64,000 nt of DNA from positions 33,976,001 through 34,040,000 of the forward strand of contig OX597835.1 of the NCBI GenBank assembly GCA_951406725.2, given 5' to 3'. Under the pieces are notes generated by a model that saw only the letters and a list, made by a program, of their open reading frames with translations, was not told the DNA's origin and searched no databases. Positions 10,983 through 58,360 of the stretch are shown here, piece by piece. Each line of letters begins with the position of its first letter. Positions within the stretch are counted from its first letter, which is position 1. The DNA comes from Octopus vulgaris. Lineage: Eukaryota. The translations under genes were made by a program, and so were the position numbers.

Positions 10983-11213
10983 GGGTGGCGAGCTGGCAGA
11001 ACCGTTAGCACGCCAGGCAAAATGCACAGCCATATTTCATCTGCTGCTACGTTCTGAGTTCAAATTCTGCTGAGGTCGACTTTGCCTTTTATCCTTTTGG
11101 GATTGATAAATTAAGTACCAGTTATGCACTGGGGTCAATGTAATCGACTTAATCCATTTGTCTGTCCTTGTTTATCCCCTCTATGTTTAGCCCCTTGTGG
11201 GTAATAAAAGAAA
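10983..11213 (+). mobile_element. SINE family C, Tx1-tailed subfamily
   Basis: GGTGGCGAGCTGGCAGAACCGTTAGCAC head, GAGTTCAAATTC B-box, tail CCCCTCTATGTTTAGCCCCTTGTGGGTAATAAAAGAAA. Confidence 0.88.
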
Positions 11214-11364
11214 CATATATAATTACAGCAGCTGAATGAATAGTGCCATAGTTAGAAGAGTGATGGAGGGATGGGTGCTAAGAAGATTAGTTGATGGAGA
11301 GAGCATGACAGAGGTAGATTGGGGGCCAGGATATTGGCACAAATGATATGGCTTACTGAGATGG

Positions 11365-14008: not shown

Positions 14009-14042
<34 letters not shown>

Positions 14043-15207: not shown

Positions 15208-15249
15208 GCTGCATTGAAAAGGAGCAATACCCCGAAACGCGTCTGTAGC
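15208..15249 (+). ncRNA. Minimal type I hammerhead, unit 4 (one stem II mismatch)
   Basis: As unit 2 but GGAG/CCCC in stem II. Confidence 0.72.
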
Positions 15250-15475
15250 TGCCGGCCAAGTAGTGTGGAGCGACTGACCTCCCTTGTTCAAAGGTTATAT
15301 GGATACAGTTTGTGTATCAAATAGCTAACTTAAGGCGATGGCCTCATGGAGCTAATAAGCAGTCAGCTTTATTCTTATTTTTATAAGAATGCCATATTAG
15401 TATGGCGATAACTAATATTTTCCGGGAACGCTGCCGTTGTTCTCTTTTAGAGAGACTTAGTAATTTTAATATTTC

Positions 15476-15516
<41 letters not shown>

Positions 15517-17783: not shown

Positions 17784-17814
<31 letters not shown>

Positions 17815-18394
17815 CAAGCAACAACAACAGAAACAACAAAAACAGCAAGAAACACCAAAGGCTGCCACACCACCAACACCATCACCAACACCAGCACCAA
17901 GACGAACAACACCACCTCCAACAACAACAACCACCACCAAACCAACACCGACAACCACCACCAAACCAACACCGACACCAGTACCTCGAAGGTCGACAGC
18001 AGCGACATCAACAGTAACAGGAGCAGCGGCACCACCGATACCGGTGGAACCAGAAACTTTTCGTCCTGCTACTGAAGCAGACCCCTCAACCATTCCTTTG
18101 CCGGATGAAGAGTCGGATTGTGCGAGCTCTGATTCCAACAAAGGAGAATGGAGTATAGTGCCTCCAAAGAAGAAAAGGAGGAAGAAACAAAAAGATTTAC
18201 AGGAAGCACGAACAAATAGTGCTTCCCAACATCAACAACAACAACAACAACAACACACACTCACAACAACAAACAACAACAACACTTTCGACACCACTAC
18301 TGCCACTGCCACACACACAAACACACACAGACACAATTACATCAATAAACACAAAGAACCAAAAACTAGTGGAGTACTTAAAAAACAAAACTAG
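16760..18394 (+). CDS. Tx1 ORF1, gag-like nucleic-acid-binding protein (544 aa)
   Basis: CFLCSSESHLKRDC CCHC knuckle, poly-Q, Pro/Thr linker, KKKRRKK basic tract. Confidence 0.88.
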
Positions 18395-18617
18395 TACAAA
18401 TATAACCGATTTCATCATACCAACACAAAACACACCACCAGCACACATTCTCACAATAAAAATAAATGCAAAAACATATGATGAAATCAAACAAATATTC
18501 CCTAACGATGTGGGATCGCTAGGGAAAAGTTTCTCGAAGAAACTTTATAAAAACATTGTGGAAGCACCCGTGCAAAAGCACAAGGGAGCCACCCCCACCA
18601 CCAACAACAGTAAGTAG
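18219..18617 (+). CDS. Conserved +1-frame ORF overlapping the end of ORF1 (no ATG; frame open from 18159)
   Basis: TPPAHI..TY..IK.IFP..VG......SKKLYKN homologous to 2470-2751. Confidence 0.6.
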   Translation: MLPNINNNNNNNTHSQQQTTTTLSTPLLPLPHTQTHTDTITSINTKNQKLVEYLKNKTSTNITDFIIPTQNTPPAHILTIKINAKTYDEIKQIFPNDVGSLGKSFSKKLYKNIVEAPVQKHKGATPTTNNSK

Positions 18618-18654
18618 AGCCTTTTTCTCCTTTTTTTTTTCCCTACTTTGAGAC

Positions 18655-21600
18655 ATGGCAAATCTTAGAATCGGTTGCTTGAATGTGAGAGGCCTCAGGT
18701 CACCTTGGAAACAGGGTCACCTGTTAAACGACCTGAGGTTTCATGATGTGGATGTAGCAGCCATCAGTGAAACCAGGCTCTCCGACCCGCAGGAACTCGC
18801 AGCCCTTTTCGGCGGATACGAGATATTTCTATCTCCGTGTCGGCCGGGAGCGGGCGGTGGTGGTACTGCGGTGTTGTTTCGGAAGGGCCTGGACCTGAAA
18901 ATAAGGACAGTCTTCTTGGATCCGGAAGGTAAGTTGGTGGTCCTCGACGTCGACGGTAGTGACGGCGGTGCTTTCAGACTGCTGGCTGCCTACGCTCCGA
19001 CAGGAGCATGGCAGTCGGATTATTTCAAACGTCTGGAAGTTTTCCTGGGAACGTCACGCACTCTAGTACTAGTTGGGGATTGGAACGCTGTCTTAGACGA
19101 ACGTTTCGATCGGGTGGGCAGGGGAGCGTCTGTTAGGAGAGGGGGAGGGTGCAAGAGCCTCGCCAACCTACTCGGCCGCTTTCAGCTGTCCGACAGGTTT
19201 CGACTAGACAACCCGAATGTGCCAATGTGGACTTGGACAAACCGCATCGGGTCGTCTAGATCGTACTTAGATAGAGTGTTTTGTAGGCCAGCGGATAAGG
19301 ACAGCGTAGGGTGTCCACAATTCCACCTAGTCGAATATACGGACCACAAATTAGTGATCTGTACGGTCGACTTAGATAGGCTACATAGACAGGGACCCGG
19401 CTACTGGAAGCTGAACGCGTCGTTAACGGCGTGCAAAGCTTACAGAGACCGGATTAGTTTACTAGTTAAGCGGGCGCTCACGGGGGCAATCATCAACAAC
19501 AACTGGTGGTTTGCCCTCAAGAGAGCAATTAGAGTAGAGTCGATTAGGTAAAGTAAGACTCTAGCTATTGAACGTAGGAAGAGAGAGCGGGATTTAGTTA
19601 AGAAACTAGACGAGGCTCTTGACACTGGCATCGCGACCGACGTGTTGGCGGCAAGGTTGGCCCTCGACCAACACTTCGACGCCAAACACGAAGGCTGCGT
19701 TGTCAGAGCTAAGGCACGTTCGCTAAGCGGGGAGGGGACTAGAGCCGCTCGATGGGCCCGCGTGGCGGAGGCGAAGCGAGGCAACAAAGCAACCATTCGG
19801 TCTTTGGTGGACCAGAACGGGCGCGAGGTTACCCAACCGAAGCAGATGTGTATGGTGCTTCAGCGGCACTTTGCTCAACTGTTTGGGACGAGCGGTGGAA
19901 CGGACACCAACGGTACAGACTTCGGTGTGTACCTGGACGGACTGCCGCAACTCTCGGACAGCGAGGCGGAGTGCTGCGAAGGACCGATATCTGCCTGGGA
20001 AGTACAGGAAGCGATGAAGAGTTGCACGAGAGGTAGATCGCCGGGTTTGGATGGTCTGCCCTACGAGCTTTACTTTTCGATGCCAGACTTGTTTGCGGAC
20101 CTGTTGGCAAACGTCTACTGCAACTGGCAGCAAAACGGGAGAATTCCTGCTTTTGTCTGTCGAGGGGTGGTGGCTTTGCTAAAGAAGGACCCAAACAAGG
20201 GGGACGTTATAGGGAATTTCCGGCCCATCACTCTGCTCAATGCAGAGTTGAAGATTTTGGCCAAGGTGCTAGCCAAGAGATTGGCGCTTGTCGTGGACAA
20301 GCTGGTCGGCGGGACGCAGACATGCGCCGTGCCGACCAGGTCGATACACGACAACCTCCATCTCATGCGCTACATCATAGAGAGGGTGGGTAACGACGCT
20401 GGCGCGGGTGGGGCTTTGATCAACTTGGATCAGAGTAAAGCCTTCGATAGGGTCGACCATCGGTACCTGGCAGCTGTCCTCAAGGCAGCCGGCTTCGGTC
20501 CAGTCTTCCGCGGGTGGATCGCTGCTTTATACAGCAACATCTGCTCGGTGATACGGGTGAACGGTCACCTTTCGGAACCGTTCGACATCTCGCGTTCGGT
20601 CCGCCAAGGATGCCCTCTCTCCTCCCTCTTGTACATTTTGACTCTCGAGCCATTACTGCGCAAGTTGGAGGCTTTGAGGGGCATCCCGCGCGATCTAGGA
20701 GGCGGAAACAGCGTGTCTGCTTATGCCGACGACGTCACCGTGGTGGTGTCGAGCCACAGGCACATTGGCCTGATTGGCGAGACGCTAAACCAGTACGAAG
20801 CGGTGACAGGGGCAAAGATTAACGCGGAAAAGTCTGTGGGCTTGCAACTGGGCACCTGGAGAGGCAAGCCCATGCCGTTCAACAGCGTCGTAGGGCGCTG
20901 GACAGACGGACCCGTTAAACTGCTCGGGGTCTGGTTCGGTCCGGACCTCCAGGTGGATAAGAACTGGGAAGAGGTGACGAGCAGGGTGGCACGTCTCACC
21001 CAGAAATGGGCCGAGAGGAAGCTGTCCCTGAAAGGTCGAGCGGAGGTGGCGAATGTGTACATCGCATCCGTCATCTATTACCGCTTGACCGTCGTCCCTT
21101 GTCCCGACCGCTGGTTGGCCAAGCTGGTACGCCTGCTCTTCGACTTTTTGTGGAAGGGTCAGGTGCCACTGGTCAGGCGATCCATCTGCTGTCAACGACC
21201 GCTGAACGGAGGCCTTGGAATGCCGTGGTTGCTGTTGCGCAGACATGCGCTCAGGCTGCGGCATCTCAAGCGCTTCCTAGACGGTGAACAGGTGTGGTCG
21301 TCTTTTGTCAGACGCGATTTTCCGCAGCTCGTCTCTTTGACGGAGCTGCAGACCTGGATCAAACGTAGACCGAGAAAGGGCGCTTGGCACCTCGAGTGCC
21401 GTCAAGCCCTCTCCGCCCTCCACCAGGCGGGCAATGCGGTCGGTTACAGCTCCACTCTAGCGTTCTATAGAGGGTTAGTGGAGGAAAAATGCGACGACGT
21501 TCTCGGGGAAACTCTAGGCGTTGAAGATGACGAACTGTGCGGTCTGTTCGGGAGGACTTTCGGGCCGGGGCCGATGGATAATTTCCAGAGGTCTCTCGCT

Positions 21601-22089
21601 TGGCAGTGCTACCGAGGGGCTCTGCCTGTTCGAGATAAACTCTACCGGCACGGAAGTGCCGTCAGCCGGGCCTGCCCGAGGTGTTGCCAGGACGATGAAA
21701 CCGTTCTGCACGCACTCGTTCAGTGCCCGAGTATTGCTGAAATATGGGTTTATGTCGAACAGCTACTGTCACGTGTAGGACGGATCCGACTATCGGCCGA
21801 ATCCATAGTGAAGATTGCCCCGCCGACCTCCTTTAACAAGGAGGGCGAGGCCGTTTTCTTGTGCCTAGTGGCTGTGGCGAAAGAGGTCGTGTGGTGGACT
21901 CGTTTGAAAGGGCTAAAGACAGACACTTTCCTCTTTGGTCAAGGCCTCATCAACTTTTTCAAGTTTCACCTGAAAAGGAAGATGAGGTTAGAGAGGAAAG
22001 TGCTGTCCGATAGCAAGTTTTATGAAAGGTGGGTGAATTGTGCGAGACTGGCCTGTATAAATGGACCAGTTCTCAGGTTTCGCCTGTGA
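18655..22089 (+). CDS. Tx1 ORF2: APE endonuclease, RT, C-terminal Cys/His domain (about 1144 codons; one in-frame TAA at 19549-19551)
   Basis: ORFs 18655-19551 and 19642-22089 share a frame; GDWN, TDH, QGCPLS, YADD, CPRC..ETVLHALVQC; the stop sits where copy A has Tyr. Confidence 0.93.
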
Positions 22090-22368
22090 TTTCAAAGAAA
22101 AAGGTAATGTAAAAGGAGAAGAAAGGGGACTCTCTACACCCCCTTTTTTTGACCAGGCTCCCGTTGGCTTTTGTAGGGTTTTTTCACCAGGAACCTTTCG
22201 AAACGTCTCCCCCTTTTGGGAGTTTTTCATTGTTTTAATAATCATTGTTTTAAAGTTTTTTACACGGATTTTTTAACAAACGGACAAAACCCTTTGTAAC
22301 CTTTCGTCCTGTCTTGTCCCTTTATGTAATCATGCGTGTCAGCCCTTGTGGCCAATAAAAAAGAATTG

Positions 22369-22462
<94 letters not shown>

Positions 22463-39995: not shown

Positions 39996-40185
39996 TATAC
40001 ATGCACATTAGTATAAATGATACAAGTTTATTAGTTAATGTACTGTGGAAGGTACCAGCAAACTAATCTGGTGGCTGTGTTAATTTGAAGTTTCTTCTCA
40101 TAAATTAGTGCAAACTATAAAAGGTTTAAACCATCAGTGTCTGATAACTTGGTGTTGTATTAATATTACAACGCAACGTTTTCAA

Positions 40186-40637
40186 GGTGGCAAGCTGACA
40201 GAAACCTTAGCACATCAGGTGAAATACTTAATGGCATTAATGGCAGTGAGCTGGCAGAACCGTTTGCACTCCGGGAGAAATGCGTAGCCATATTTCATCT
40301 GCCGTTACATTCTGAGTTCAAATTCCGCCGAGGTTGACTTTGCTTTTCATCCTTTTGGGCTCGATTAAATAAGTACCAGTTATGCACCGGGGTCGATATA
40401 ATCCGTTTGTCCTCTCTGTGTTTAGCCCCTTGTGGGTAGTAAAGAAATAGGTATTTCGTCTGTCTTTACATTCAGAGGTTGACTATCTTCATCTGTCTAT
40501 GCATTCTGAGGTCGACTATGCCTTTCATCCTTTCGGGGTCGATAAATTAAGTACCAGTTGCATACTGGGGTCGATCTAATCGACTGGACTCCCCCTCCCC
40601 AAAAATTTCGGCCCTTGTGCTTAGAAAAGAAAAGAAT
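40186..40637 (+). mobile_element. Nested SINE C: Tx1-tailed copy (about 40239-40449) inside a non-Tx1-tailed copy
   Basis: Host head 40186-40238, insert, host resumes GGTATTTCGTCTG at 40450. Confidence 0.85.
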
Positions 40638-41274
40638 ATCACTACATGTTTTCAAATTTCATCTCAGGGCCACTTTTCAATATCTTCAATTTTTGTTCTA
40701 ACCGATTTCGTATTTGGTGCCTTTGTGTAGTTATGTAAAGCTATCATTGACATGAAATACATTTTCACCATAAATAAAGATTTAATGGTTCTTAAAGTAT
40801 GCAAATTTAGGGTCATTTTACACAATCGAAAGCCACAGACATACAGGTGCCGGTTTTCATAGTAACAAGCCAAGCTTTTTGCCAAGCAGCTTACTACATG
40901 TTCTTTCTGTCGTTTCTTAAATGCTTAAAACACGTGGTATGAGATCTGCTAAAAATAACAGCTAAATCAGCCTTAATGATGCACGAAGATTTTGCTTTTC
41001 CATAACCATATGAATTCTCATGTGCAGAAAACAAATTCGCAAAAAAATTTCTGAAAATTGTAATGAGGGATTATATGGCGTGCATAAAGCAGAATTCCAA
41101 TATCTGTTTTGTTTACAGTTGACAACACATGCAGTCATGCAAAAAATGACAGCTTCCAAATCCTGTTTTCTGACTAAGTAAAAAAAATTATCAAACTTTG
41201 AACCTCTGTAACTTTTATTTAAAAAATCTTCTGGAAAAAGTGAATCACCTCCCGAGATTCAGTGTGGTAAATTA

Positions 41275-41839
41275 TTGGGTTGTCCGGAAAGTTCGTGCCG
41301 ATTTTTAAAGGAAAAAAAAGGTCAATAAATAATTGCCATCACATTTTCAATCAACCAAATATGAACCATTTTGTTGCACAATGCGTCTCCATCTTTCCTT
41401 TAGCTTGAAAATACCCTCTTCCCTGAATTGGGGTGGTTTCATGTCAAAGAATTCATCAAGGTATCTTTTTACGTCATCCAAAGAATTGAAATTTTTACCA
41501 TTAAGACTATTCTGTAAAGACCTGAATAAGTGGAAATCCAAAGGAGCAATATCTGGTGAATATGGAGGGTGGTATAACACATCCCAGCCGAGCTGCAGCA
41601 ATTTTTGCCTAGTTCCCAAAGCATCAAGTGCCGAATATGAACTTTCTTATCTTCCATTTTAAAGGGTTACAGAATTAACACAGGTTATAGGAATATAAAT
41701 CTTCTTCCACGAAAAGATAGCTTAAACTGTGCTCTAAATGGAGGTGTAGTCAAATCCTATTTTATGGACTCAACCATGTTCTAAAATAAGTCGAAAGGTA
41801 AGCTACTATAAATCGGCACGAACTTTCCGGACAACCCAA
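41275..41839 (-). mobile_element. Internally deleted mariner element
   Basis: Perfect TIR TTGGGTTGTCCGGAAAGTTCGTGCCGATTT, TA flanks; N-terminus MEDKKVHIRH joined to the HPPYSPDIAPLDFHLFRSL C-terminus. Confidence 0.93.
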
Positions 41840-41894
41840 TACATCAATACACCAAATTTTAAAATTTTCACTGAACAGAAAGATACTTAAACTG

Positions 41895-42032
41895 GTATTT
41901 ATTTTATCGACCCCCGAAAGGATAAAAGACAAAGTCGATCTTGGCGGAATTTGAAATCAGAACACAAAGGCAGATGAAATACTGCGAAGCATTTTACTCG
42001 ATACGCTAACGATTCTGCCAGCACACCACCTT
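41895..42032 (-). mobile_element. SINE family C, partial
   Basis: Reverse complement GGTGGTGTGCTGGCAGAATCGTTAGCG...TTCAAATTCCGCC. Confidence 0.8.
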
Positions 42033-42309
42033 ATTTCGTTTCTGTAAATTGACTTTGTCTGTGATCTGACGTCTGCAGCGATGGGCAAACTGTAGCATCA
42101 GGTCTGTGATGCGACAACCATAGCGTTAAGTGATTGTTGTGTCATATTTGTAATTAGATATCTTTCGGGCGAAGTAATTTGTCAGTTGTCAATGATGATA
42201 CCTCTGTAGTATCTGTATAAAAGATTATCGAATAATACTGCGTTATTAGCCTTACAAATCTCCTCAAATCGGCTCTTGGTGCATACTTTTGTATACATAT
42301 AGATCATGA

Positions 42310-42545
42310 AGGTGCGTAGCTTAGTGGTTAGGAGTATTGGGCCTACGATCGTAAGGTCATGAGTTCAGTTACCGGCGACGCATTGTGTCCTTGAGCAAGG
42401 CACTTAATTTTTCATGTTGCTCAGCTGGTAAAAATGAGTAGTGCCTGTATTCAAAGGGGCCAGCCTTGTCATGTTCTGTGTCACGCTGAATCGCCCAGAA
42501 AACTACGAAGGTTCGCGTGTCTGTGGAGTGCTCTTACACCTTGCC
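42310..42545 (+). mobile_element. tRNA-derived SINE family E
   Basis: TAGCTTAGTGG A box, GAGTTCAGTTAC B-box-like, GTGTCCTTGAGCAAGGCACTT central motif. Confidence 0.75.
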
Positions 42546-43835
42546 TGTCTGGAAGTCAAAGTCCCAGAGGATTTTTGCTGTAACATTTTCATCCATTACC
42601 TTTTTCCGGTGTATGTTGAGACCAAGCACTTGTTACCTTGTACCCATACTTCCAACATAGTAGCCAGTGGAGGTTTGGGGGCTATCTTGTCGTGTCTGTG
42701 CTTGTACTCTTTCTACACAAGACTTTCACAAGCAATAACAATGAGTCACGCTTCCGATCCTCTTCCACACATTCTGCAGAGGTTCGTTGCACTTGTGTGG
42801 TATATATCCTTTTTCACTGAGTTGGTATTCAATGCCTGATCTTGCGTAGGTATGAGCAGACTTTCAGTCTTCTTTCTGAGGTCACCTTTGCTGAGCCAGC
42901 TCCATGATGCTTCCTGATCTTATAAATTGTTAGTTTCACGGTGGAACTGACCATGTAATTCCATGCGGGGTAGGGTTTCTTCTCTCTCGTTGGCTATTCG
43001 TAATCGGAATTCATGAGCACTCTCAAATCAATTTTGAGTAAATCCTTCTGCATTAGAAGCATATTTAACAGGTCTATTTTGCCATGTTTCTTCTTTCACT
43101 GTTGATGCACTCCCTTACGCTAATCAGCCCACGTCCACCCTTACACCTCTTCATATAGAACCTGTATACGTTCGCCTTACGGTGGAGGGTGCCATACATT
43201 GTCATTGTCTTCCGGGTAGTGCGATCGAGTTGGTCAATCTCCGCTTGTGTTCATTTCAAGATGGGTGCACTATAGCGGACTACAGCAACAGCCCATATGT
43301 TGACGGCAGTTACAAGATTCCTTGATTCGAGCTTCGATTTCAAGAGAAGTTTGAGGCGCTTCAAATATGCAACGATGACCTTGTCTTTCATTTCTCTGTG
43401 CAAGATATTGTCCAGCTCCAGGATCCCAAGCTACTTGTACCCTACCCATCATTATCCAGGTCTTCCATTCTCTCTCCGTTTGGCAATTCTATGGCCCTAA
43501 CATCTGCTCTTTTCCACCAGGCTCTGTTTTTGCAAACAGTCTTAAATCATCCACGAAGAGAAGGTGATCGAGACGAGGTCCATTCTTTCTCAGTTCATAG
43601 AGCACGTTAACTTTACGCAGGACTACAGAAAGTGGGATCAAGGCTATAGCAAATAATAAAGGTGAACAAGAGTCTCCCTAGAAGATATCTCTTTTTGATT
43701 GTTATCTCAGCTAAATGCTAGTTGTTACAGAAAAGAAGTGTTTTCCAACTAGGCTTGCTGTTCTTTATTGGTTCACACACTTTCTCAACTATTCCACACA
43801 TGTGTTTCCAAAATCCATGAATACGACATGTCGTA
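42546..43835 (-). pseudogene. Old R4/Dong-like RT fragment
   Basis: Decayed motifs on the minus strand: GDS.SPLLFAIALIPLS, FVDDLRLFAK, YK.LGI, YKHRHDK. Confidence 0.7.
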
Positions 43836-43866
43836 AGCTTTATTATTATTATTATTATTATTGTTA

Positions 43867-43899
<33 letters not shown>

Positions 43900-43902
<3 letters not shown>

Positions 43903-45243
43903 TATGTTTGACTTTTGCTTTATATTTGTACAAGTTGGCTCCAAGTCTCACTCAGAGACCTCAAGAGACAACAGGGTTGGAAGTTCATGTTGTTGTTATG
44001 CCTAGTGTGCCATATATTTGGGGGGTCGGGATGTTGTACTAATGAATGTCTAAAAAAAAAGGTTTTTTTTTTTTTTTTTTTTTAAAACCGAAAATTATGT
44101 TTGTTTTAAACCTTGAGATTACATAGAGAGTATTTTGCGTAGGATATGAGCAGTTCCCATGAGCACTATCTTTTGAACTTCTGCCATTTTTGGGTTTCCT
44201 GGTATCTGAGTTAGGTAGCTATCAGCCCCTTTTGCTATCATTCCCAGGGCACCTATGACAACAGGTATTGTTTTAGTCTTCAGCTTCCACATTTTGCTGA
44301 TTTCTATTTCAAGATCTTTATATTTGCTCAGTTTTTGGTAGGTCTTGACAGATACGTTTATATCGATTGGGACAGTCATATCAATGAGGAGGCATGTTCT
44401 TTGTTTGAAGTCTTTCAATATGATGTCTGGCCTATTTGCATCTATCTTCCTGTCAGTTTGAATGATGAAGTTCCAGAGGAGTGAGATGTGGTCATTTTCA
44501 AGCACTGGGGGTGGTTTGTGTTCCCACCAGTTTTTTTCATGGGTCAAATCCAGGTTTTTACAGATTACCCAGTGAATATATTGTGCAGCTCTATCGTGCC
44601 TGTTGAGATACTCTGTAAGCGCTAGAAGACTGCACTTGGAGACCACATGGTCAATGGTTTCATTTTGTTGCTTGCATACACGACACGTTGGACTGCTTCT
44701 GATATTTAATATGTTGGCCTGGTAGTTTCTTGTTGGTAGGCATTGATCTTGAGCTGCTATGATAAACCCCTCTGTTTCAGATTTTAAGCCAGAGGCCATT
44801 AGCCATTGATGGGTCAGGGCTTTGTCGATATCTGCATTATTCGCTCTCTTTGGGTATTTGCCATAGAGAGGTTTTTCTTGCCATTTATTATTCAGAATAT
44901 CTAAGGCCGCAGTTTTGGCACGGGTTTTCATGCGCCTAGCTTTTTCTGTGCTTGTTTCTTGTATATCTATCTCTAATTCCGAAATTGGTTGTATTCGGAA
45001 TTCACTTAGATATTTCTTTGCCTGTTTTGTGACTGAGTATGATGCTTTCTTGTTTTCATGTTTTGAGACAAGTTTTAACATCCAGTCCTCAGAGTTTTTC
45101 AGGTAGGTGTCTAGGCCAATTGTAGCAATCTTCATTGTTATTGCCAGTTGCAAAAGACCACGGCCTCCCTCTTTTCTTGGCAGATAGAGTCGTTCTGTAT
45201 CTGCCTTAGGGTGGTGCATTCTATGCATTGTCAACAGTTTCCT
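43900..45243 (-). mobile_element. 5'-truncated R4/Dong-clade retrotransposon in (TAA)n
   Basis: Flanked on both sides by TAA repeats; 3'UTR shared with 55917-56115. Confidence 0.9.
44119..45234 (-). CDS. C-terminal part of R4/Dong ORF: CCHC finger + restriction-like endonuclease
   Basis: LYLPRKEGGRGL, CRVC..ETIDHVVSKC, RHD, RPDI...LID, K..KYKDL. Confidence 0.88.
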   Translation of the reverse strand: MTMHRMHHPKADTERLYLPRKEGGRGLLQLAITMKIATIGLDTYLKNSEDWMLKLVSKHENKKASYSVTKQAKKYLSEFRIQPISELEIDIQETSTEKARRMKTRAKTAALDILNNKWQEKPLYGKYPKRANNADIDKALTHQWLMASGLKSETEGFIIAAQDQCLPTRNYQANILNIRSSPTCRVCKQQNETIDHVVSKCSLLALTEYLNRHDRAAQYIHWVICKNLDLTHEKNWWEHKPPPVLENDHISLLWNFIIQTDRKIDANRPDIILKDFKQRTCLLIDMTVPIDINVSVKTYQKLSKYKDLEIEISKMWKLKTKTIPVVIGALGMIAKGADSYLTQIPGNPKMAEVQKIVLMGTAHILRKILSM

Positions 45244-45280
45244 TATTTTTTATTATTATTATTATTATTATTATCATTAT

Positions 45281-45362
<82 letters not shown>

Positions 45363-45364
45363 TG

Positions 45365-46015
45365 TAGTGAGTGAGAAAGCAGCGCATGCCATCAGTATCA
45401 CTAGGGTACGAAATACAAAACCCAGTAGGAGCACTCTATCGGTTGCGACGACGAGGGTACCAGCTGATATGATCAACGGAACAGTGGACTGGAGCAACAT
45501 GAAATAATGTGTCTTGCTCCAGGACACAACGCGTCGCCGGGAATCGAACTCACGACCTTACAATCGTGGGCCAAATACCCTAACCACTAAGCCACGTTAT
45601 ACCCACCATAACTACCTCTCTGATAAGGATGCACCAGGCACATGCATCACAACCATATCTGCGCCTCATGGTGATCTCATATTAAGGTAAACAGTGCATG
45701 ACTTTGCAGGTAGGATCCAGTTAGAATTTTCTTCTGGTCAAGTAGCGCCACCCACTGAAAAGATCCTTGAATAAGGGTTGTCTAAGGACGATTAATGAAA
45801 CATCCATGATTCCAGAGATAAATTATTCAAACCCCACAGAATCCCTCTCAATACATGACTATGATGCTCCCCCACTACTTCTGCTTGTGATCAGCGATGC
45901 ACTTACCGTCATGCTCAACTGGTGAAGGTCAAACAAATGACAAGCAACTCTGTGGTATTGAGCAGAATATTTATTGCAGCCCATCTTCTATACCAAAACA
46001 AAACATATACATGAT
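45365..46015 (-). mobile_element. Family D element interrupted by a family E SINE (about 45428-45597)
   Basis: Matches 22787-23348; the insert has minus-strand TGGCTTAGTGG and GAGTTCGATTCCC. Confidence 0.8.
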
Positions 46016-46174
46016 GATGATGATAATAATTATCATCATCATCATCATCATCATTATTATCATCATCATCATCATCATCATCATTTTTATTATTATCATC
46101 ATCACCATCATCATCATTACCACCACCATCATCATCATCATCATCATCATCATCATTATTATTATTATTATTGA

Positions 46175-46240
<66 letters not shown>
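46016..46240. repeat. (CAT)n/(ATT)n tract
   Basis: Direct reading. Confidence 0.95.
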
Positions 46241-46849
46241 ATATTGCTGTTTTATCCCAAATATTGATGTTGCTTTTGTTTTGTTTTTCTTTTTTTTCTG
46301 TAACAAGTGATCTCCAGATTGACTTCCTATCTCAAACTTAAACAGTTTTATCTTAATGGTTATTTTTATTCCTCTTCTTCTTGTTATGAATACCGTTGTT
46401 TATGCAATTTTTTAAAATTTTTGTTTATGCTTTCGCCATAATTGTTGTTGTTGTTGCTTTTCTTGATCGTTAATTTTTTTCTTTCCTTTACATTTATTTA
46501 TTTATTTATTTATATATTTATTCTTTGTGTATCTATATGAGAGTTGAGTTATTCCAGAAACAACCATTAAGCCGCCCCACCCCCTCTTTCGCTCACCACC
46601 ATCTTCCTTCTCTGTATTCTCCTCCATCTTCTCATTTGCCATCTTGGACTCTATTAAAGAAAAACATTATACATTATCATCACTGTCGTGTCCCACCTCC
46701 ACCGCCTAAACCACCGCCCTCACCAACACCGACACCACCACCAACATCACAACCACAAACACCACCACCACCACCACCACCATCTCCATCACTATCATCA
46801 CCAGCACAGTCATCACCACTAACATCATCATCGTCGTCGTTGTCGTTGT

Positions 46850-49800
46850 TATCATCATCATCATCATCATCTTCGCCACCATCATCACCATCATCATCAT
46901 CTTCGCCACCATCATCACCATCATCATCTTCTTCGCCATCATCATCACCATCATCATCATCTTCGCCACCATCATCATCATCTTCGCCAACCATCATCAC
47001 CATCATCATCATCATCGTCACCATCATCACCATCATCATCATCATCGTCACCATCATCACCATCATCATCATCTTCGCCATCATCATCACCATCATCATC
47101 ATCTTCGCCACCATCATCACCATCATCATCATCTTCGCCACCATCATCACCATCATCATCTTCTTCGCCATCATCATCACCATCATCATCATCTTCGCCA
47201 CCATCATCACCATCATCATCTTCGCCACCAACATCACCATCATCATCATCTTCGCCACCATCATCACCATCATCATCATCTTCGCCACCATCATCACCAT
47301 CATCATCATCTTCGCCACCAACATCACCATCATCATCATCTTCGCCACCATCATCACCATCATCATCATCTTCGCCACCATCATCACCATCATCATCATC
47401 TTCGCCACCAACATCACCATCATCATCATCTTCGCCACCATCATCACCATCATCATCATCTTCGCCACCAACATCACCATCATCATCATCTTCTCCACCA
47501 TCATCACCATCATAATCAACTTCGCCACCATCATCACAATCATCTTCATCTTCGCCACCATCATCACCATCATCATCATCTTCGCAACCATCATCATCAT
47601 CATCGTCACCATCATCACCATCATCATCATCACCACCAACATCCCCATCATCATCATCATCGTCACCATCATCACCATCATCATCATCGCCACCAACATC
47701 CCCATCATCATCATCTTCGCCACCATCATCACCATCATCATCATCGCCACCATCATCACCATCATCATCATCTTCGCCACCATCATCACCATCATCATCA
47801 ACTTCGCCATCATCATCAACTTCGCCACCATCATCACAATCATCTTCATCTTCGCCACCATCATCACCATCATCATCATCTTCGCCACCATCATCATCAT
47901 CATCGTCACCATCATCACCATCATCATCATCGCCACCAACATCCCCATCATCATCATCATCGTCACCATCATCACCATCATCATCATCGCCACCAACATC
48001 CCCATCATCATCATCTTCGCCACCATCATCACCATCATCACCATCATCATCATCGCCACCATCATCACCATCATCATCATCTTCGCCATCACCATCATCA
48101 TCATCTTCGCCACCAACATCACCATCATCATCATCTTCGCCACCATCATCACCATCATCATCATCATCGCCACCATCATCACCATCATCATCTTCTTCGC
48201 GACCATCATCACCATCATCATCATCTTCGCCACCATCATCATCATCTTCGACAACCATCATCACCATCATCATCATCATCGTCACCATCATCACCATCAT
48301 CATCATCGCCACCAACATCCCCATCATCATCATCTTCGCCACCAACATCACCATCATCATCATCTTCGCCACCATCATCACCATCATCATCATCTTCGCC
48401 ACCATCATCACCATCATCATCTTCTTCGCCACCATCATCACCATCATCATCATCTTCGCCACCATCATCACCATCATCTTCATCTTCGCCACCATCATCA
48501 CCATCATCATCATCTTCGCCACCATCACCATCATCATCGTCACCATCAACACCATCATCATCATCGCCACCAACATCCCCATCATCATCATCATCGTCAC
48601 CATCATCACCATCATCATCATCGCCACCAACATCCCCATCATCATCATCTTCGCCACCATCATCACCATCATCATCATCTTCGCCACCATCATCACCATC
48701 ATCATCATCTTCGCCACCATCATCACCATCATCATCATCTTCGCCACCATCATCACCATCATCATCATCTTCGCCACCATCATCACCATCATCATCATCT
48801 TCGCCACCATCATCACTATCATCTTCATCTTCGCCACCATCATCACCATCATCATCATCTTCGCCACCATCATCACCATCATCTTCATCTTCGCCACCAT
48901 CATCACCATCATCATCATCTTCGCCACCATCATCACCATCATCATCATCTTCGCCACCATCATCACTATCATCTTCATCTTCGCCACCATCATCACCATC
49001 ATCATCATCTTCGCCACCATCATCACCATCATCATCTTCGCCACCAACATCACCATCATCATCATCTTCGCCACCATCATCACCATCATCATCATCTTCG
49101 CCACCATCATCACCATCATCATCATCTTCGCCACCATCATCACGATCATCTTCATCTTCGCCACCATCATCACCATCATCATCATCTTCGCCACCATCAT
49201 CACCATCATCATCATCTTCGCCACCATCATCACCATCATCATCATCTTCGCCACCATCATCACCATCATCATCATCATCGTCACCATCATCACTATCATC
49301 TTCATCTTCGCCACCATCATCACCATCATCTTCATCTTCGCCACCATCATCACTATCATCTTCATCTTCGCCACCATCATCACCATCATCATCATCTTCG
49401 CCACCATCATCACCATCATCATCATCTTCGCCACCATCATCACCATCATCATCATCTTCGCCACCATCATCACTATCATCTTCATCTTCGCCACCATCAT
49501 CACCATCATCATCATCTTCGCCACCATCATCACCATCATCATCATCTTCGCCACCATCATCACCATCATCATCATCTTCGCCACCATCATCACCATCATC
49601 ATCTTCGCCACCAGCATCACCATCATCATCATCTTCGCCACCATCATCACCATCATCATCATCTTCGCCACCATCATCACCATCATCATCATCTTCGCCA
49701 CCATCATCACTATCATCTTCATCTTCGCCACCATCATCACCATCATCATCATCTTCGCCACCATCTTCACCATCATCATCATCTTCGCCACCATCATCAC

Positions 49801-52235
49801 CATCATCATCATCTTCGCCACCATCATCACCATCATCATCATCATCGTCACCATCATCACTATCATCTTCATCTTCGCCACCATCATCACCATCATCATC
49901 ATCTTCGCCACCATCATCACCATCATCATCTTCGCCACCATCATCACCATCATCATCATCTTCGCCACCATCATCACCATCATCATCATCTTCGCCACCA
50001 TCATCACCATCATCATCATCTTCGCCACCATCATCACTATCATCTTCATCTTCGCCACCATCATCACCATCATCATCATCTTCGCCACCATCATCACCAT
50101 CATCATCATCTTCGCCACCATCATCACCATCATCATCATCTTCGCCACCATCATCACCATCATCATCATCATCGCCACCAACATCCCCATCATCATCATC
50201 TTCGCCACCATCATCACCATCATCATCATCTTCGCCACAAACATCACCATCATCTTCATCTTCGCCATCATCACCATCATCATCATCATCGCCACCATCA
50301 TCATCATCATCATCATCTTCGCCACCATCATCACCATCATCATCATCTTCGCCATCATCACCATCATCATCATCATCGCCATCATCATCACCATCATCTT
50401 CATCTTCGCCACCATTATCACCATCATCATCATCTTCGCCACCATCATCATCATCATCGTCACCATCATCACCATCATCATCATCTTCCCCACGATCATC
50501 ACTATCATCTTCATCTTCGCCACCATCATCACCATCATCATCATCTTCGCCACCATCATCACCATCATCATCATCTTCGCCACCATCATCACCATCATCA
50601 TCATCTTCGCCACCATCATCACCATCATCATCATCATCGCCACCAACATCCCCATCATCATCATCTTCGCCACCATCATCACCATCATCATCATCTTCGC
50701 CACAAACATCACCATCATCATCATCTTCGCCATCATCACCATCATCATCATCATCGCCACCATCATCACCATCATCATCATCTTCGCCACCATCATCACC
50801 ATCATCATCATCTTCGCCACCATCATCACCATCATCATCATCTTCGCCACCATCATCACCATCATCATCATCTTCGCCATCATCACCATCATCATCATCA
50901 TCGCCACCATCATCACCATCATCTTCATCTTCGCCACCATTATCACCATCATCATCATCTTCGCCACCATCATCATCATCATCGTCATCATCATCACCAT
51001 CATCATCATCGCCACCAACATCCCCACCATCATCATCATCGCCACCAACATCCCCACCATCATCATCTTCGCCACCATCATCACCATCATCATCATCTTC
51101 GCCACCATCATCATCATCATCGTCACCATCATCACCATCATCATCATCGCCACCAACATCCCCATCATCATCATCTTCGCCACCATCATCACCATCATCA
51201 TCATCTTCGCCACCATCATCACCATCATCATCATCTTCGCCACCATCATCACCATCATCATCATCACCGCCACCATCATCACCATCATCTTCATCTTCGC
51301 CACCATCATCACCATCATCATCATCTTCGCCACCATCATCACCATCATCATCATCTTCGCCATCATCACCATCATCATCATCATCGCCACCATCATCACC
51401 ATCATCTTCATCTTCGCCACCATCATCACCATCATCATCATCTTCGCCACCATCATCATCATCATCGTCACCATCATCACCATCATCATCATCGCCACCA
51501 ACATCCCCACCATCATCATCATCGCCACCAACATCCCCACCATCATCATCATCGTCACCATCATCACCATCATCATCTTCGCCACCATCATCATCATCAT
51601 CGCCACCATCATCACCATCATCATCATCTTCGCCATCATCACCATCATCATCATCATCGCCACCATCATCACCATCATCTTCATCTTCGCCACCATTATC
51701 ACCATCATCATCATCTTCGCCACCATCATCATCATCATCGTCACCATCATCACCATCATCATCATCGCCACCAACATCCCCACCATCATCATCATCGCCA
51801 CCAACATCCCCACCATCATCATCATCGTCACCATCATCACCATCATCATCATCTTCGCCACCATCATCATCATTATCGTCACCATCATCTCCATCATCAT
51901 CATCGCCACCAACATCCCCATCATCATCTTCGCCACCAACATCACCATCATCATCATTTTCGCCACCATCATCACCATCATCATCATCTTCGCCACCATC
52001 ATCACCATCATCATCATCTTCGCCACCATCATCACCATCATCATCTTCTTCGCCACCAACATCACCATCATCATCATCTTCGCCACCATCATCACCATCA
52101 TCATCCTCTTCGCCACCATCATCACCATCATCATCATCTTCGCCACCATCATCACCATCATCATTTTCTTCGCCACCATCATCACCATCATCACCATCAT
52201 CATCATTGCCACCAACATCACCATCGCCAGCATCA
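46850..52235. repeat. 30-bp minisatellite TTCGCCACCATCATCACCATCATCATCATC, derived from (ATC)n
   Basis: Exact 30-bp periodicity visible (e.g. 47281-47490); variants differ mostly by whole triplets. Confidence 0.97.
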
Positions 52236-52609
52236 GCACGAATCAACTCCATCATTGTTGTTATCCTCTCATCATTATCTCCATCTCTGTTTATTTGCAA
52301 AATGTGTGTGTGTGTGTGCATGTGTGCGTGCACATGCGTTTGTGTGCGTGCTCGCGTGTATCGTTATATATAGACAGATCTGAAATCACATACGCACACA
52401 CATATCTGTATTCATACGCCTATACACAGACACACCTAGGATCTTGTCAAATTTCTTCCAGTCACTTCAAGTTTTTCAAATTTTCACCAGATTATTTTCA
52501 AAAGAAAATGTAATTCTTGTGCAGTTCTGCATGCTGATGGCAACACGAAAATTGCAGCAAGGCTGCGTGATACTGCCAGACGTGGCATCATAAGACTGGT
52601 TTGAGATTG

Positions 52610-52916
52610 CGTTTTTTATTCTTCTTCACTTTTGTCTTTGATTTGCAAGATTCTTTATGTGAATTCGTGTGTTGAAACAAATTTGTTTAGAGAATCCTTG
52701 GATCCTATAAAAGAGCTGTTGTGCTAGCAGACCACGAAACACGGTTGTAATTCCTCCTGTATCTGCAGAGTATCATTATGCCTATATTATTAACACACGA
52801 ACTGGTTTAATTCCCCACTCCTTTATTATTAGTTACCTGGTTAAAATCCAAATAACTTATCGATTGTTAGTCATTGAAAAGGTTGCAGGAAGCAGCGAAA
52901 GAGCTTTGACAAACAA
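52610..52916. mobile_element. Diverged member of the 11950-12255 family
   Basis: Shared TTTGCAAGATTCTTTATGTGAATTCGTGTGTTGAA and the same hammerhead stem II. Confidence 0.6.
52864..52916 (+). ncRNA. Type I hammerhead candidate (U3-A8 core)
   Basis: TTGTT-A-GTCA-TTGAAAA-G-GTTGC aggaa GCAGC-GAAA-GAGC-TT-TGAC-A-AACAA. Confidence 0.6.
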
Positions 52917-52939
52917 AAACAAAACAAATTAAACAATCG

Positions 52940-53108
52940 CGCAGGTGTGGCTGTGTGGTAAGTAGCTTGCTTACCAGCCACATGGTCACGGGTTCAGTCC
53001 CACTGCGTGGCACCTTGGTCAAGTGTCTTCTACTATAGCCTCGGGCCGACCAAAGCCTTGTGAGTGGATTTGGTAGACAGAAACTGAAAGAAGCCCGTCG
53101 TATATATG

Positions 53109-53147
<39 letters not shown>

Positions 53148-53372
53148 GTGTGTGTGTTTGTGTGTCTGTGTTTGTCCTCCCTCAACATCGCTTGACAACC
53201 GATGCTGGTGTGTTTACGTCCCGTTACTTAGAGCTTCAGCAAAAAGAAACCGATAGAATAAGTACTAGGCTTACAAAGAATAACTCCTGGGGTCGATTTG
53301 CTCCACTAAAAGGCGGTGCTCCAGCATGGCCACAGTCAAATGACTGAAACAAGTAAAAGGGAAAAGAGAGAG
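52940..53372 (+). mobile_element. SINE family A, full length
   Basis: A and B boxes, body and tail as at 37430. Confidence 0.92.
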
Positions 53373-53420
53373 TAACCAACAACGGCCAGAGTTGAATTAT
53401 CCAAACGATGGTTGAAGATA

Positions 53421-54066
53421 TGTTTCTTTATTAGCCACACAGGGCTGCACACAGATAGAACAAATTACAAGGTAGAGCTTTTCTTTTGAAGGTTTAAGAA
53501 AAAAAAAAAAAAAAAAAAAAAAGGAAGGGGGAGTTTCGATCAAAAGGGATCGTAAAAGGAGAGAAAGAGGACAAAAAAAGGGGGTTTAAAAAAAAGGGGG
53601 GAGGAAAAAAAATTGATCAATAGGGATCGTTATCACAGAAATGTCAATATGAAGTGTAAAGGGGAGGACAGGTGAGGTTTACCCGTGCAAAGAAAAGCCT
53701 ACGGAAAAGACCACGGTAACCTCGGTCAATGATGTCACATTTTATATTTCTTTTTTTTTTTTTTTTTTTTGCAAATAAGCAACTCTCTGTTTTCGATTTC
53801 TGGGTTCATAGGACTATGCTCAAGGTGGCTTCGTCATTCATACGTGCCATTCTTGCTACATTCACCCATCTTTTTTTAAAACATTCGCTAGACAAAACTT
53901 GCCTCTCTACTCTCACTTTCCTTTTCAAGTGGTACTTGAAGAAGTTGATGAGAGATTGACCAGAGAGGAAAGTGTTTGTCTCCAATCCTTTCAGACGCGT
54001 CCACCAGATACATTCTTTCGCCACAGCCACAAGGATGATGAAAATAGCTCTTCCTTCCCGTTTGAA
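53421..54066 (-). mobile_element. 5'-truncated Tx1 copy (ORF2 C-terminus + 3'UTR)
   Basis: VAVAKECIWWTRLKGLETNTFLSGQSLINFFKYHLKRK matches the end of copy B ORF2; 3' end GCCCTGTGTGGCTAATAAAGAAA. Confidence 0.9.
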
Positions 54067-54598
54067 GATAGATAGATAGATAGATAGATAAATAGATAGA
54101 TGGATGGATGGATAATTTCTTTATTGGCCACACAGGGCTAAACACAGAGGGGACAATTACAATGTAGTTTTTCTTTTCGATGGGGGGGGAGGGGCAGAAG
54201 AAAAAAACAAGAACAAAAAAAACCAATGGTGTTGTTTGTGGCAGAGTTGTCCGTAGTAGTAGTAGTGGTTGATTGTGAAGCTGTCGTCTGGGTTCTTCCA
54301 ATTTTCGTGGGTCGGTGGCGGCGGTGTTGGCGTCCAATGCTCACACCTGCACCTGTGTTGCTTCTCCCCTTCTTCCCTACACCCCTTCATGAAGCTATGG
54401 GGAAGGCAGGGTAGGGAAATGAACGTCGTAAGCGTTGTCAAGGAGACCAACGTTCTTTGCAACGACGACGACTTCATGGCTTGAAGACGCCATGCTCAAA
54501 ACAGAAAATGGCTTAGAAAGCCAAAAACAAATTTACAAAATCGAGAAACACGCCACACAGGGCAGGTTTCCCGTGCAAAGAATTTGCACAACCGAATG
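54067..54598 (-). mobile_element. Short internally deleted Tx1 derivative with (ATCC)(ATCT)n tail
   Basis: ORF1-like start MASSS...AYDVHFPTLPSP (54493-54395) joined to a Tx1-type 3' end. Confidence 0.65.
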
Positions 54599-55013
54599 GG
54601 ATCTTTTCGGTTTCAACGGCAGTTTTTTTCTAGCGGTGTCATATGAAATTGTCACCCACAATTATGACCCTAGTATCGATCTATTGCATTTCAATCTGTT
54701 TTAGGGTTAAGGGTGGTGGGAAGGGTATCTTTTTTCTTCACATATGTAAATAAACCCAATCTGTTTCTTAAACGACGGACATATTATTCATACGGCACAG
54801 AACGTTTTCACCTCAATAGACGGTCATTGATTGGTTGAAATTGCTGAAATGCAAGAAATTAAAGACCAAATATCTTACAAACTATAGAATTTTCTCAATA
54901 AAGCCAAGAGAAAAAGATGTTTTATAAACACATTCTACCAGTATACGAAGTTTAAAAGTGTTTAGTTACGTGGAAATTATTTTAAAAAACTGCCGTTCAA
55001 ACCGAAAAGATCC
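54599..55013. mobile_element. Merlin-like MITE M1
   Basis: Same TIRs and body as 33609-34019. Confidence 0.85.
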
Positions 55014-55523
55014 CTCACGGATATTTTAAATTTAGTTTCTTGTATTATTTTCACGAATTAACACTCAACACATGTTATATAATGGCATGCAAGATGCCGT
55101 AGTAAACCAAGAGAGTCATCACACAGCTAAAACACCATAACGTTAAAAAACAGACACCGTATTGTGCTATAGTAGCGTTTATTTTCTGTCTTGAGGCAAT
55201 CACGCTTGTTAAGGAATTATTGATAAAATTTAAATTAAAGTCAATCTTCATGGATGTGAACTTTTGTCGAACTCACGCCTCTTCAAACACTCTCTGAGCC
55301 CCGCAGATCGATATTAAATGTACAGGATGATCCAAAAGTCACGCACAAAATAAGTTCAGTTTGCTCCGAAATCGGCAATTAAAAATGCTTCAATTATTCT
55401 AAATTTAATTAAAATGAATTAAATAATGATAGATACATACGTACTTGTACAAGATGAACAAAGTGAATGAATGAACGAATAATAATAATAATAATGATAA
55501 TAACAATAATAATAATAATAATA

Positions 55524-55584
<61 letters not shown>

Positions 55585-56115
55585 CTCCTTTGGAATTTCA
55601 CCAATTCAAACTGACAAATAGGGCAGACATTGCATTGAAAGATTTCAGAAAAAAATCATGCCTCCTCATTGATATAAACGTATCTGTCAAGACCTACCAA
55701 AAACTGAGCAAGTATAAAGATTTTGAAATAGAAATTAGCAAAATGTGGAAGCTGAAGAGTAAAGCAATACCTGTTGTCATAGGTGCCCTGGGAATGATAG
55801 CAAAAGGGGCTGATTGCTATCTTTTTCAGATACTAGGAAACCCCAAAATGGCAGAAATTCAAAAGATAGTACTCATGGGAACTGCCCATATCCTAAGTAA
55901 AATACCGACTATGTAATCGCAAATTTTAAAACAAACTCATGATTTTCTTATGGTTTCTTAAACATTTTCTAGAACAATACTACGTACAAAAAACAAAATA
56001 TATGGCACCGTAGGCATAACACCAACGTGAACTTCTAACTTATTGTCTCTTGAGGCCTCTGGGTGAGACTTGGAGCCAACTTGTACAAATGCAAAGCAAA
56101 TGTCAAACATAAAAT
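55585..56115 (+). mobile_element. 5'-truncated R4/Dong copy between (TAA/TGA)n and (TAA)n
   Basis: CLLID...KTYQKLSKYKD...QKIVLMGTAHIL near-identical to 44119-45234. Confidence 0.9.
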
Positions 56116-56117
56116 AA

Positions 56118-56179
<62 letters not shown>

Positions 56180-56183
<4 letters not shown>

Positions 56184-56690
56184 TAATTGGAAGTGTTATC
56201 ATGTACATTGTTTTGTCTTGGTATAAAAGATGGGCTACAGCAAATATTCTGCTCAATACCACATATTTGCTTGTCAGTTGTTTGACCTTAACCAGTTGAG
56301 TATGTCCCTTAGTGGCTGACGATATGTGCATCTCTAATCATGAGCAGAAGTAGTGGGGGAGCATCATAGCCATGTGTTGAGAGGGATTCTTTGGGGTTTG
56401 ATTAATTCACCTCTGGAAACATGGGTGGTTCTTTCAACATCCTTAAACAACCCTTATTCAGGGACCTTTCGAGTGGGATGGGTTACTCGACCTGAAGAAA
56501 ATTCTAACTGGGCCCCACCTGCAAGGTCATGCGCTGTTTATCTTGATATGAGATCACCATGTCGCGCACATATGGTTGTGATGCATGTGCCTTGTGTACC
56601 CTTATCAGACGAGTAGTCATGATGGGTATACTGGGCTTCATATATTTTACCCCAGTGTCACTTTGATGGCATGCACTGCTCTCTCACTCA
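56180..56690 (+). mobile_element. Family D element in (TAA)n
   Basis: Reverse complement of 23382-23893; (TAA)n tail. Confidence 0.88.
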
Positions 56691-56899
56691 ATAATAATAA
56701 TAATATAGACAAAATGTTTAATGTTTCGGTGCGTGACTTTTGGCCCGCCCAATATCTTCTCTTTTCTTATGGCAAAATTGCTTTGCAAGGTTTGGTGGTG
56801 TTATGTAAGATTCGTTGAAAAACTTTAAACATTTTTGTTGAAGGTAAATCACCCGGTTTTTAAAACATGAGGATTCGCTTCGTATAGTTTATAAATAGT

Positions 56900-57062
56900 A
56901 GACGTAGAAGTGGCTGTGTGGTAAGAAGCATGCTTGCGAACCACATGGTTCCGGGTTCAGTCCCACTGCGTGACGCCTTCGGCAGGTGAATTCTACTATA
57001 ACCTCGGGCCAACCAAAGCCTTGTGGGTGGATTTGATAGACGGAAACTGAAAGAAGCCCGTC

Positions 57063-57096
<34 letters not shown>

Positions 57097-57333
57097 GTGC
57101 GTGTGTGTGTGTATACGTTTGTGCATCTGTGTTTGCCCCCCACCCACCAACATAGTTTGAGAAACGATGCTGGTGTGTTTATGTCCCCGTAACTAAGCGG
57201 TTCGGCAAAAGAGACCAATAGAATAAGTACTAAGCTTACAAAGAATAAGAACCTGGGGTCAATTTGCTCGACTAAATGCGGTGCTCCAGCATGGCCGCAG
57301 TCAAATGACTCAAACAAGTAAACGAGTAAAAGA
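56900..57333 (+). mobile_element. SINE family A, full length
   Basis: A and B boxes, body and tail. Confidence 0.9.
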
Positions 57334-57769
57334 GTAATAGTCCTGTGCTTGTTTGCTGGTAACATCTTTCGTGGGTACCCGTTAGCCACCCCTTTTTTTA
57401 TCTCAGGATCCGTCGCGCGTAACTACGTGACATACCTGAAAGTTTTATATTCACTTGATGACGTTAATAGCACTTAGCTCAAAATGAATTAGCGCAGCAT
57501 CATTAAAATGACAACTAATTATGAACACGAATAATAATGATACAAATCGGTAACTTGATGTAAATTATCACAGGTGGTGCAGAAAGAACACTACCGCCAC
57601 CACCACCATCACCACTAGTATCACCACCGGCGCTACTGCCCTCGCTACAACCACAATCATTACCACCGCCACCACCAATACCACCATCACCATTGATACC
57701 ACCACCATCAATATCACCGCTACCACCACCATCACCACCACCACATACATACATATATACATGTATACA

Positions 57770-57805
<36 letters not shown>

Positions 57806-57955
57806 AGCACATTTACACTTACACACACATACACGCTCATGTATATTCACATACATACACACTCACATATACAAGTATATGTAGGGAAACAGAAGATGAA
57901 GAAGAAGGAGGAGGAGGAGGAGGAGGAGAAAAAGGAGGCGGAGAAGGAGGAGGAG

Positions 57956-58360
57956 GGGGAGCTGGCTGAATCGTTAGTGCCTCAGACAAAATGCTCAACG
58001 GTATTTTTGGCAGAATCGTTAGCACGCCGGGTGAAATGCTTAGCGATATTTCGTCTGCCGCTACGTTCTGAGTTCAAATTCCGCCAAGGTCGACTTTGCC
58101 TTTCATCCTTTCGGGGTCGATAAATTAAGTACCAGTTACGCACTGGGGTCAATGTAATCGACTTAATACCTATGTCTGTCTTTGTTTGTCCCCTCTATGT
58201 TTAGCCCCTTATGGGCAATAAAGAAATAGGTATTTTTTCCCTTTCTAAGTTCAAATGCCGATGGTGTCGACTTCGCCCTTCATCTTTTCGGAGGTCGATA
58301 TAATATGTACCAGTCAATTACTATGGTCTATGTTAGCCATGTGTGCCAATATTAGGAAGA
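57956..58360 (+). mobile_element. Nested SINE C: Tx1-tailed copy (58009-58228) inside a sister copy
   Basis: 9-bp direct repeat GGTATTTTT at 58000-58008 and 58229-58237. Confidence 0.85.

Follow-up and report, generated by a model that had tools for sequence, protein, structure and literature searches.

A Tx1-type LINE family and a SINE with a similar tail share one insertion site in SINE heads of Octopus vulgaris

Our analysis suggests that a Tx1-type LINE family in the Octopus vulgaris genome inserts almost only at one position of a SINE head, and that a SINE with a similar 3' tail and the same landing position is likely mobilised by the endonuclease and reverse transcriptase of that LINE, the site probably being set by the enzyme with RNA help. 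The two elements share the site and its register, target duplications flank the insertions, the LINE has intact copies, and the SINE inserts into copies of its own kind. Under this explanation the site would be nicked by the enzyme on its bottom strand, reverse transcription would begin at a fixed point past the tail, and the duplication would restore the site so that elements can stack, while the read-through RNA of nested source copies probably aids by pairing with the nicked target.

Nested SINEs in the window

The window is the whole stretch of DNA analysed, 64,000 nucleotides at positions 33,976,001-34,040,000 (G000:C22), and the genome searched covers 2.8 Gb. SINE positions follow the numbering of a solo copy of 232 nt (L007:1296-1527), in which site 1 is position 51 (window position 58000 in a host) and site 2 is position 18. 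The features of the window are as follows.

10983..11215, + strand: solo Tx1-tailed SINE of the CG sublineage, ending in a TA-type flank
40186..40232, + strand: 5' half of the host SINE of locus 1, with a tRNA-like head and an A-box-like motif, from a sister family with a non-Tx1 tail
40233..40238, + strand: 5' copy of the target duplication at site 1, locus 1; 6 bp with one mismatch to the 3' copy (40450-40455)
40239..40449, + strand: full-length Tx1-tailed SINE insert of locus 1, CG sublineage with CpG decay at the site
40450..40638, + strand: 3' copy of the duplication (40450-40455) and the host 3' half, which contains the B-box, the central domain and the tail of the sister family
57957..57999, + strand: 5' half of an old, diverged host SINE, locus 2
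58000..58008, + strand: 5' copy of the target duplication at site 1, locus 2; 9 bp, a perfect match to 58229-58237
58009..58228, + strand: 5'-truncated Tx1-tailed SINE insert of locus 2, starting at reference position 15
58165..58173, + strand: 9-nt tail-variant segment of locus 2, the reverse complement of the 3' junction 58226-58234, with a predicted RNA hairpin
58229..58333, + strand: 3' copy of the duplication (58229-58237) and the host 3' half, locus 2

The original prediction held that one column, lying between the A-box-like and the B-box-like motif, is the point of interruption in both hosts, and that the two inserts differ in their 5' ends; both points are confirmed. The host of locus 1, whose 3' half ends near 40638, is bracketed by an outer direct repeat (40176-40185 and 40646-40655, 9/10 identical). 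In the insert of locus 2, site 2 corresponds to 58012 and the insert's own site 1 to 58045. The copy at 10983 lies outside any nest, as had been cautioned. All three tailed copies of the window were described as having no GG at the site column (11031, 40289 and 58045), which is correct for these copies but not typical of the family. Two belong to the CG sublineage and have undergone CpG decay, and the third has a rare single change present in 8 of the 456 tailed heads that we typed.

The elements have the features of tRNA-derived SINEs, i.e. a head with A- and B-box-like motifs (read by eye against the box consensus), a short non-coding body and target duplications. An Rfam search with the SINE gave no match. 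Its central domain may resemble those of the MetaSINE superfamily and of the octopus OK, OR1 and OR2 SINEs.

Site-1 junctions across the genome and the partner LINE

The tail is abundant, a 27-nt tail pattern having 94,295 exact matches in the genome and none in the control. A shorter tail pattern was found 31,541 times in exact junctions with site 1, 2,812 times before site 2 and 13,353 times before a TA run; different prefixes were used for these counts, which are hence not exact fractions. The first 100 consecutive tails of contig 1 lead into site 1 in 43 cases, site 2 in three, other SINE positions in two and other DNA in 52, and a stricter rule leaves 39 at site 1 and three at site 2. If an element is called target-specific when more than 20% of its flanks lie in one repeat, a threshold given in the target-specificity definition of (PMC4494074), at a fixed position and with a target duplication, the SINE is target-specific by its 43 tails of 100. 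It is less precise than the LINE, many copies lying in unique DNA with a partial match to the site or in (TA)n. Self-arrays of the tailed SINE with a 184-bp unit are common.

An ORF2 scan of the gathered loci revealed the LINE through a 3' end that continues into site 1. Its 3' UTR was used as a query; 40 of the 365 candidates were scored, and 39 besides the query were fetched. The LINE enters the SINE at reference position 51/52 in 36 of these 39 (once after a short deletion), two others show the site followed by a stacked element, and one is off-target. Site 1 thus adjoins 38 of the 39 3' ends, and the LINE is target-specific in the above sense. A 5' end stacked behind two LINE copies has 36 matches in the genome, and each of the 16 fetched is preceded by 13 bp of site 1. 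From its pairing with ORF2 ends on the same strand, this 5' end probably belongs to a GG subfamily of the LINE.

Three LINE copies have an open frame of 1,134 aa, and all three end at site 1. L663 is a full-length LINE inside a SINE with a 15-bp duplication, and the stacked 5' end above does not match it. Its 1,134-aa ORF2 contains PF03372 (APE endonuclease), PF00078 (RT) and PF13966 (C-terminal zinc motif), all above cut-off. The best solved relative is the human L1 ORF2, and the best match among named proteins is annotated 'Transposon TX1' (E=2e-90, 31% identity), the Tx1 placement being a probable one by similarity. L663 is 58% identical to the (ATT)n LINE of the window, and 48% in the endonuclease. 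That LINE of the window (16515-22370) was itself considered as the partner at site 1 and rejected, as 30/30 of its loci end in (ATT)n. A truncated minus-strand LINE of L557 was also rejected, with 0/20 of its family loci ending in the SINE.

The 35 typed LINE junctions divide into 18 CG-type and 17 GG-type, a split that matches two tail variants. The three intact copies are CG-type. L663 is the one CG-type LINE whose 5' junction was read, and its host is of the CG lineage; no CG-lineage head was found at the 16 other LINE 5' junctions, half of which are headless array junctions. The real carrier of the SINE may be the older GG subfamily, because the intact LINEs end on CG while 372 of the 421 SINE junctions have the standard GG form; no intact copy of that subfamily was seen among the copies examined. 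The SINE tail is similar over ~45 nt to several Tx1-type families, of which the site-1 LINE is not the closest: the tail alignment scores 46 with the site-1 LINE, whereas a family that targets (TATC)n reaches 65 and the ORF1-only family at site 2 reaches 64. Pattern searches found no LINE with the exact SINE tail and no non-SINE tail at site 1, the matches, where there were any, being SINE variants.

Site 2 lies in the A-box. A different SINE subtype lands there, as do ORF1-only elements, e.g. that of L567 with a 17-bp duplication. Among the 30 loci on which this non-SINE class rests, 12 ORF1-only relatives end at site 2, and weaker matches are found elsewhere. Sister Tx1 lineages would serve this site.

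Independent nests, composites and self-insertion

Nesting is above chance, with 420 genome matches to a two-headed pattern and one to its reversed control. Reading the first 30 rows by eye, we found 17 true nests at 16 loci; the remaining rows have microsatellite or unique flanks, or are without the tail. Another 20 loci, picked for their nested look, show the same behaviour. The original prediction inferred independent, site-specific insertions by a Tx1-type machinery, and named the descent of all nests from one amplified composite as the contrary case. The former is supported by target duplications of varied length (~6-17 bp) and by the autonomous LINE with an identical nick register. The latter fails, since the duplications vary and the hosts span several tail families.

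The predicted target, the sister SINE, is indeed the host at the window loci but not the sole host family, as at least three tail types are hit and tailed copies are hit too (L107, L112, L129/130, L377 and L383, with a re-insertion at the same site in L129/130). We typed 456 tailed heads across the loci gathered in the analysis, which are not a random sample, and read CGG in 215, TGG in 32, CAG in 66, the CG lineage in 102 and other forms in 41. GG is therefore kept in 247 of the 456, and among 40 two-headed cases with 37 typable inserts it is present in 23, with 8 of the CG lineage. Self-avoidance is hence refuted for the tailed family as a whole. We regard it as very improbable that the tailed family has no site and that only the sister family is targeted. 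The three window copies without GG agree with this proposal, as does the rarity of the CG sublineage at SINE junctions. However the majority of tailed copies retain the site and serve as hosts, and one LINE subfamily ends on the CG form of the site, as in the host of L663. The splitting of the host promoter, also proposed, is not supported as the outcome: a full-length insert comes with an A and a B box, and one head is still intact in most composites.

A narrower form of avoidance is suggested for the CG sublineage, which has CG in place of GG in ~22% of tailed heads. Only 2 of the 421 SINE-type site-1 junctions (441 rows minus 20 LINE-type rows) start with CG, and the lineage is slightly younger (mean divergence 0.054 vs 0.067). 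Its escape from SINE insertion is suggested rather than demonstrated, because arrays make GG look too frequent and a G copied from RNA could mask CG hosts. We found no linked body variants that mark the CG lineage, and the hosts of CG-ending LINEs are therefore not typable from their 3' halves. We tentatively consider a target chase within one genome, in which the younger SINE sublineage changed GG to CG at its own landing site and largely escaped insertion by other SINEs; later, the specificity of a younger LINE subfamily would have moved by one base to match CG, possibly through the RNA and not through a change of the endonuclease. We think such a chase possible but doubtful.

The 100 tails of contig 1 make up 85 elements, and 38 of these have a junction (sites 1 and 2 pooled). 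The 38 comprise 27 single-headed, 9 headless and two elements flagged as two-headed, one of which resembles an internal deletion. The two-headed form seen at the window loci is thus a minority among junction-bearing elements. It can be objected to the LINE-carrier view that one or two of 38 are two-headed, and that many junctions may reflect composite amplification or local duplication. The single-headed composites may have arisen by homologous 5' joining, as modelled for R1 in the account of (PMC2718515); alternatively one head may have been lost afterwards, or the composites may have been amplified as units.

Could most junctions then be something other than separate targeted insertions, a few nested sources having been amplified as single-headed composites and spread locally by tandem duplication? 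We lean against this but give it appreciable weight. It would account for the excess of single-headed and headless elements and for duplications that bracket whole dimers (L017/018). Rare variants are common to neighbouring tailed units (9 vs a permutation mean of 1.2), and among single heads joined to sister-family 3' halves 8 of 38 are of the CG lineage, vs 4 of 55 among solo sisters. However the two-headed nests with their varied duplications and hosts are left unexplained, and so is the LINE. The sister halves in composites differ pairwise by 0.134, more than the tailed units (0.098) but less than solo sisters (0.167). Age tests on the composites were not significant (p=0.075 and 0.15), and a test for in-place duplication by shared variants in tailed-to-sister composites gave 0 in 12 pairs. 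Such amplification concerns the single-headed majority and can be compatible with mobilisation by the LINE.

Target choice and comparison with known systems

In L1, the APE-type nick site is read mainly on one side. Starting from 180 terminal tails, we kept 114 with a head and without a SINE head directly upstream, and scored 58 duplications on their distal part. These lie mostly in non-SINE DNA and include a few poor calls, and old SINE hosts may account for two or three of them. The pre-existing target in them matches the site motif only rightward of a fixed register, and nothing is conserved to the left save the lack of G at -1. Such a one-sided match would fit both an APE-type nick and RNA pairing.

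RNA guidance might also dominate, with a weakly specific nick and a site picked by pairing of the read-through 3' extension with the target, so that a subfamily would keep to the site at which its source copy sat. We think this rather unlikely. In its favour, one tail base inside the SINE is sorted by site: T outnumbers C by 90 to 10 in the first 100 site-1 rows, and C outnumbers T by 88 to 12 in the site-2 rows, as counted by eye on rows that include arrays. The sorting extends to unique DNA, where the first target base is G in 22/32 T-type and A in 16/26 C-type copies (Fisher p=1.5e-6). However the C-type sample was partly chosen by its junction, and sites 1 and 2 are served by different LINE lineages, so the sorting can mirror the carrier LINE. 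The tail variant seen at locus 2 is complementary to the junction, and therefore its source copy would have sat at such a site; copies with this variant have GG-type junctions in 86 of 106 cases and TA-type in none. The predicted hairpin has -18.4 vs -8.3 kcal/mol without the extension, and z is -2.1 for the copy in the window. In the 3' copy, mismatches close to the junction tend towards the family motif (~13 vs 6, by eye), and SART1 and R1Bm offer a precedent as described in (PMC7265360). Against dominant guidance, the 3' junctions of L115, L123 and L381 retain the deviant first base of the host, and the register is sharp. We prefer, as fairly probable, a site set by the LINE enzyme with help from RNA.

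The closest published case that we found is the crocodilian Tx1-Mar/SINEU system, which targets a DNA transposon (PMC4494074). According to the results given there, the LINEs and SINEs share targets, with a SINE fidelity of 13-90% (PMC4494074). As in Octopus vulgaris, Tx1 LINEs and SINEs have a common target preference inside another repeat, two hot spots belong to different LINE families, tandem insertions form around the duplication, and the SINE can be less faithful (PMC4494074). Unlike there, where the target is a Mariner DNA transposon, the target here is the passenger's own head and those of sister SINEs, hit with single-base precision, and the SINE has a tail similar to those of the LINEs (PMC4494074). 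Tx1L in Tx1D, Keno in U2 and Kibi/Koshi in microsatellites are likewise sequence-specific insertions of the Tx1 clade into multicopy targets, but no SINE is among the targets listed in that source (PMC4494074). Sister LINE families in the Octopus vulgaris genome use (ATT)n and (TATC)n.

R1, R2 and SART1, as described in the sources cited, also form tandem arrays via re-insertion into the duplication, and flanking target RNA permits seamless 5' junctions and accurate priming (PMC2718515, PMC7265360). Unlike the present system, they target rDNA or telomeres and are described there without a SINE passenger as target (PMC2718515, PMC7265360). SINE multimers and SINE-derived satellites are similar in having tandem units from part of a SINE, but the account in (PMC10702118) attributes them to recombination or same-locus insertion, without a site-specific LINE. 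No LINE-SINE pair targeting the SINE's own head was found in the open-access literature searched.

For repeat annotation, the dimers are best treated as nests or composites and not as unrelated families. Closely related LINE families that have intact copies but differ in target (the CG and GG forms of site 1, site 2, (ATT)n and (TATC)n) provide a natural panel for the long-open question of how far the APE endonuclease and RNA-target pairing each contribute to site choice, which is relevant to targeted insertion based on retrotransposons. By offering its own carrier tens of thousands of landing sites, the passenger would reverse the usual relation between LINE and SINE and explain a large class of 184-bp tandem arrays.

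Tx1-type elements and other repeats of the window

The window contains the following repeats:

1-4700, - strand: second Tx1-type LINE, 74% to the LINE at 16515-22370
14036-15481: 363-bp tandem unit in about four near-identical copies
16515-22370, + strand: near-full-length Tx1-type LINE, its ORF2 with one stop
44119-45246, - strand: LINE fragment of another clade
46700-52285: long low-complexity tandem array, units of trinucleotide type
53420-54070, - strand: sister 3' fragment, next after the element at 54115-54600
54115-54600, - strand: Tx1-type element with an internal deletion

The family of the LINE at 16515-22370 is very young; it has numerous copies at 99-100% identity, an intact ORF2 of 1,145 aa and head-to-tail arrays of ~5.87 kb on the contigs C47, C50 and C4 (at 93.8 Mb), and it terminates in (ATT)n at 30 of 30 loci. 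The closest match to the tail of the tailed SINE, the tRNA-type SINE with a Tx1-type 3' tail, is that of the internally deleted element at 54115-54600, and the families of this element and of its sister fragment at 53420-54070 both terminate in (TATC)n. The 363-bp tandem unit was also found at another locus of this genome, L179.

Other recurrent flanks of Tx1-type elements

The relatives of the ORF1-only element, a Tx1-lineage element that sits in the A-box at SINE position 18, have two additional recurring terminal flanks (L585-L588 and L596; L591, L593, L594, L597, L601 and L602), one of which is likely a stacked element and the other another short repeat. A further Tx1-type LINE family (L604-L623) terminates repeatedly at a single position of a different repeat.

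Unusual SINE landings and the GA form of site 1

At L084 and L340 the tailed SINE has landed within another SINE on its antisense strand; the position is identical in the two cases, and the target there matches the site motif partially. Another locus shows a different arrangement:

L565, about 550-700: 5S-rRNA-like piece, 3' of the site 1 (SINE position 51) of a host and 5' of a tailed SINE

We take this piece to resemble 5S rRNA.

The GA form of site 1, present at window position 58045 within the truncated tailed insert, was also observed in 3 of the 16 LINE 5' junctions (L666, L675 and L678), and hence it does not look protective.
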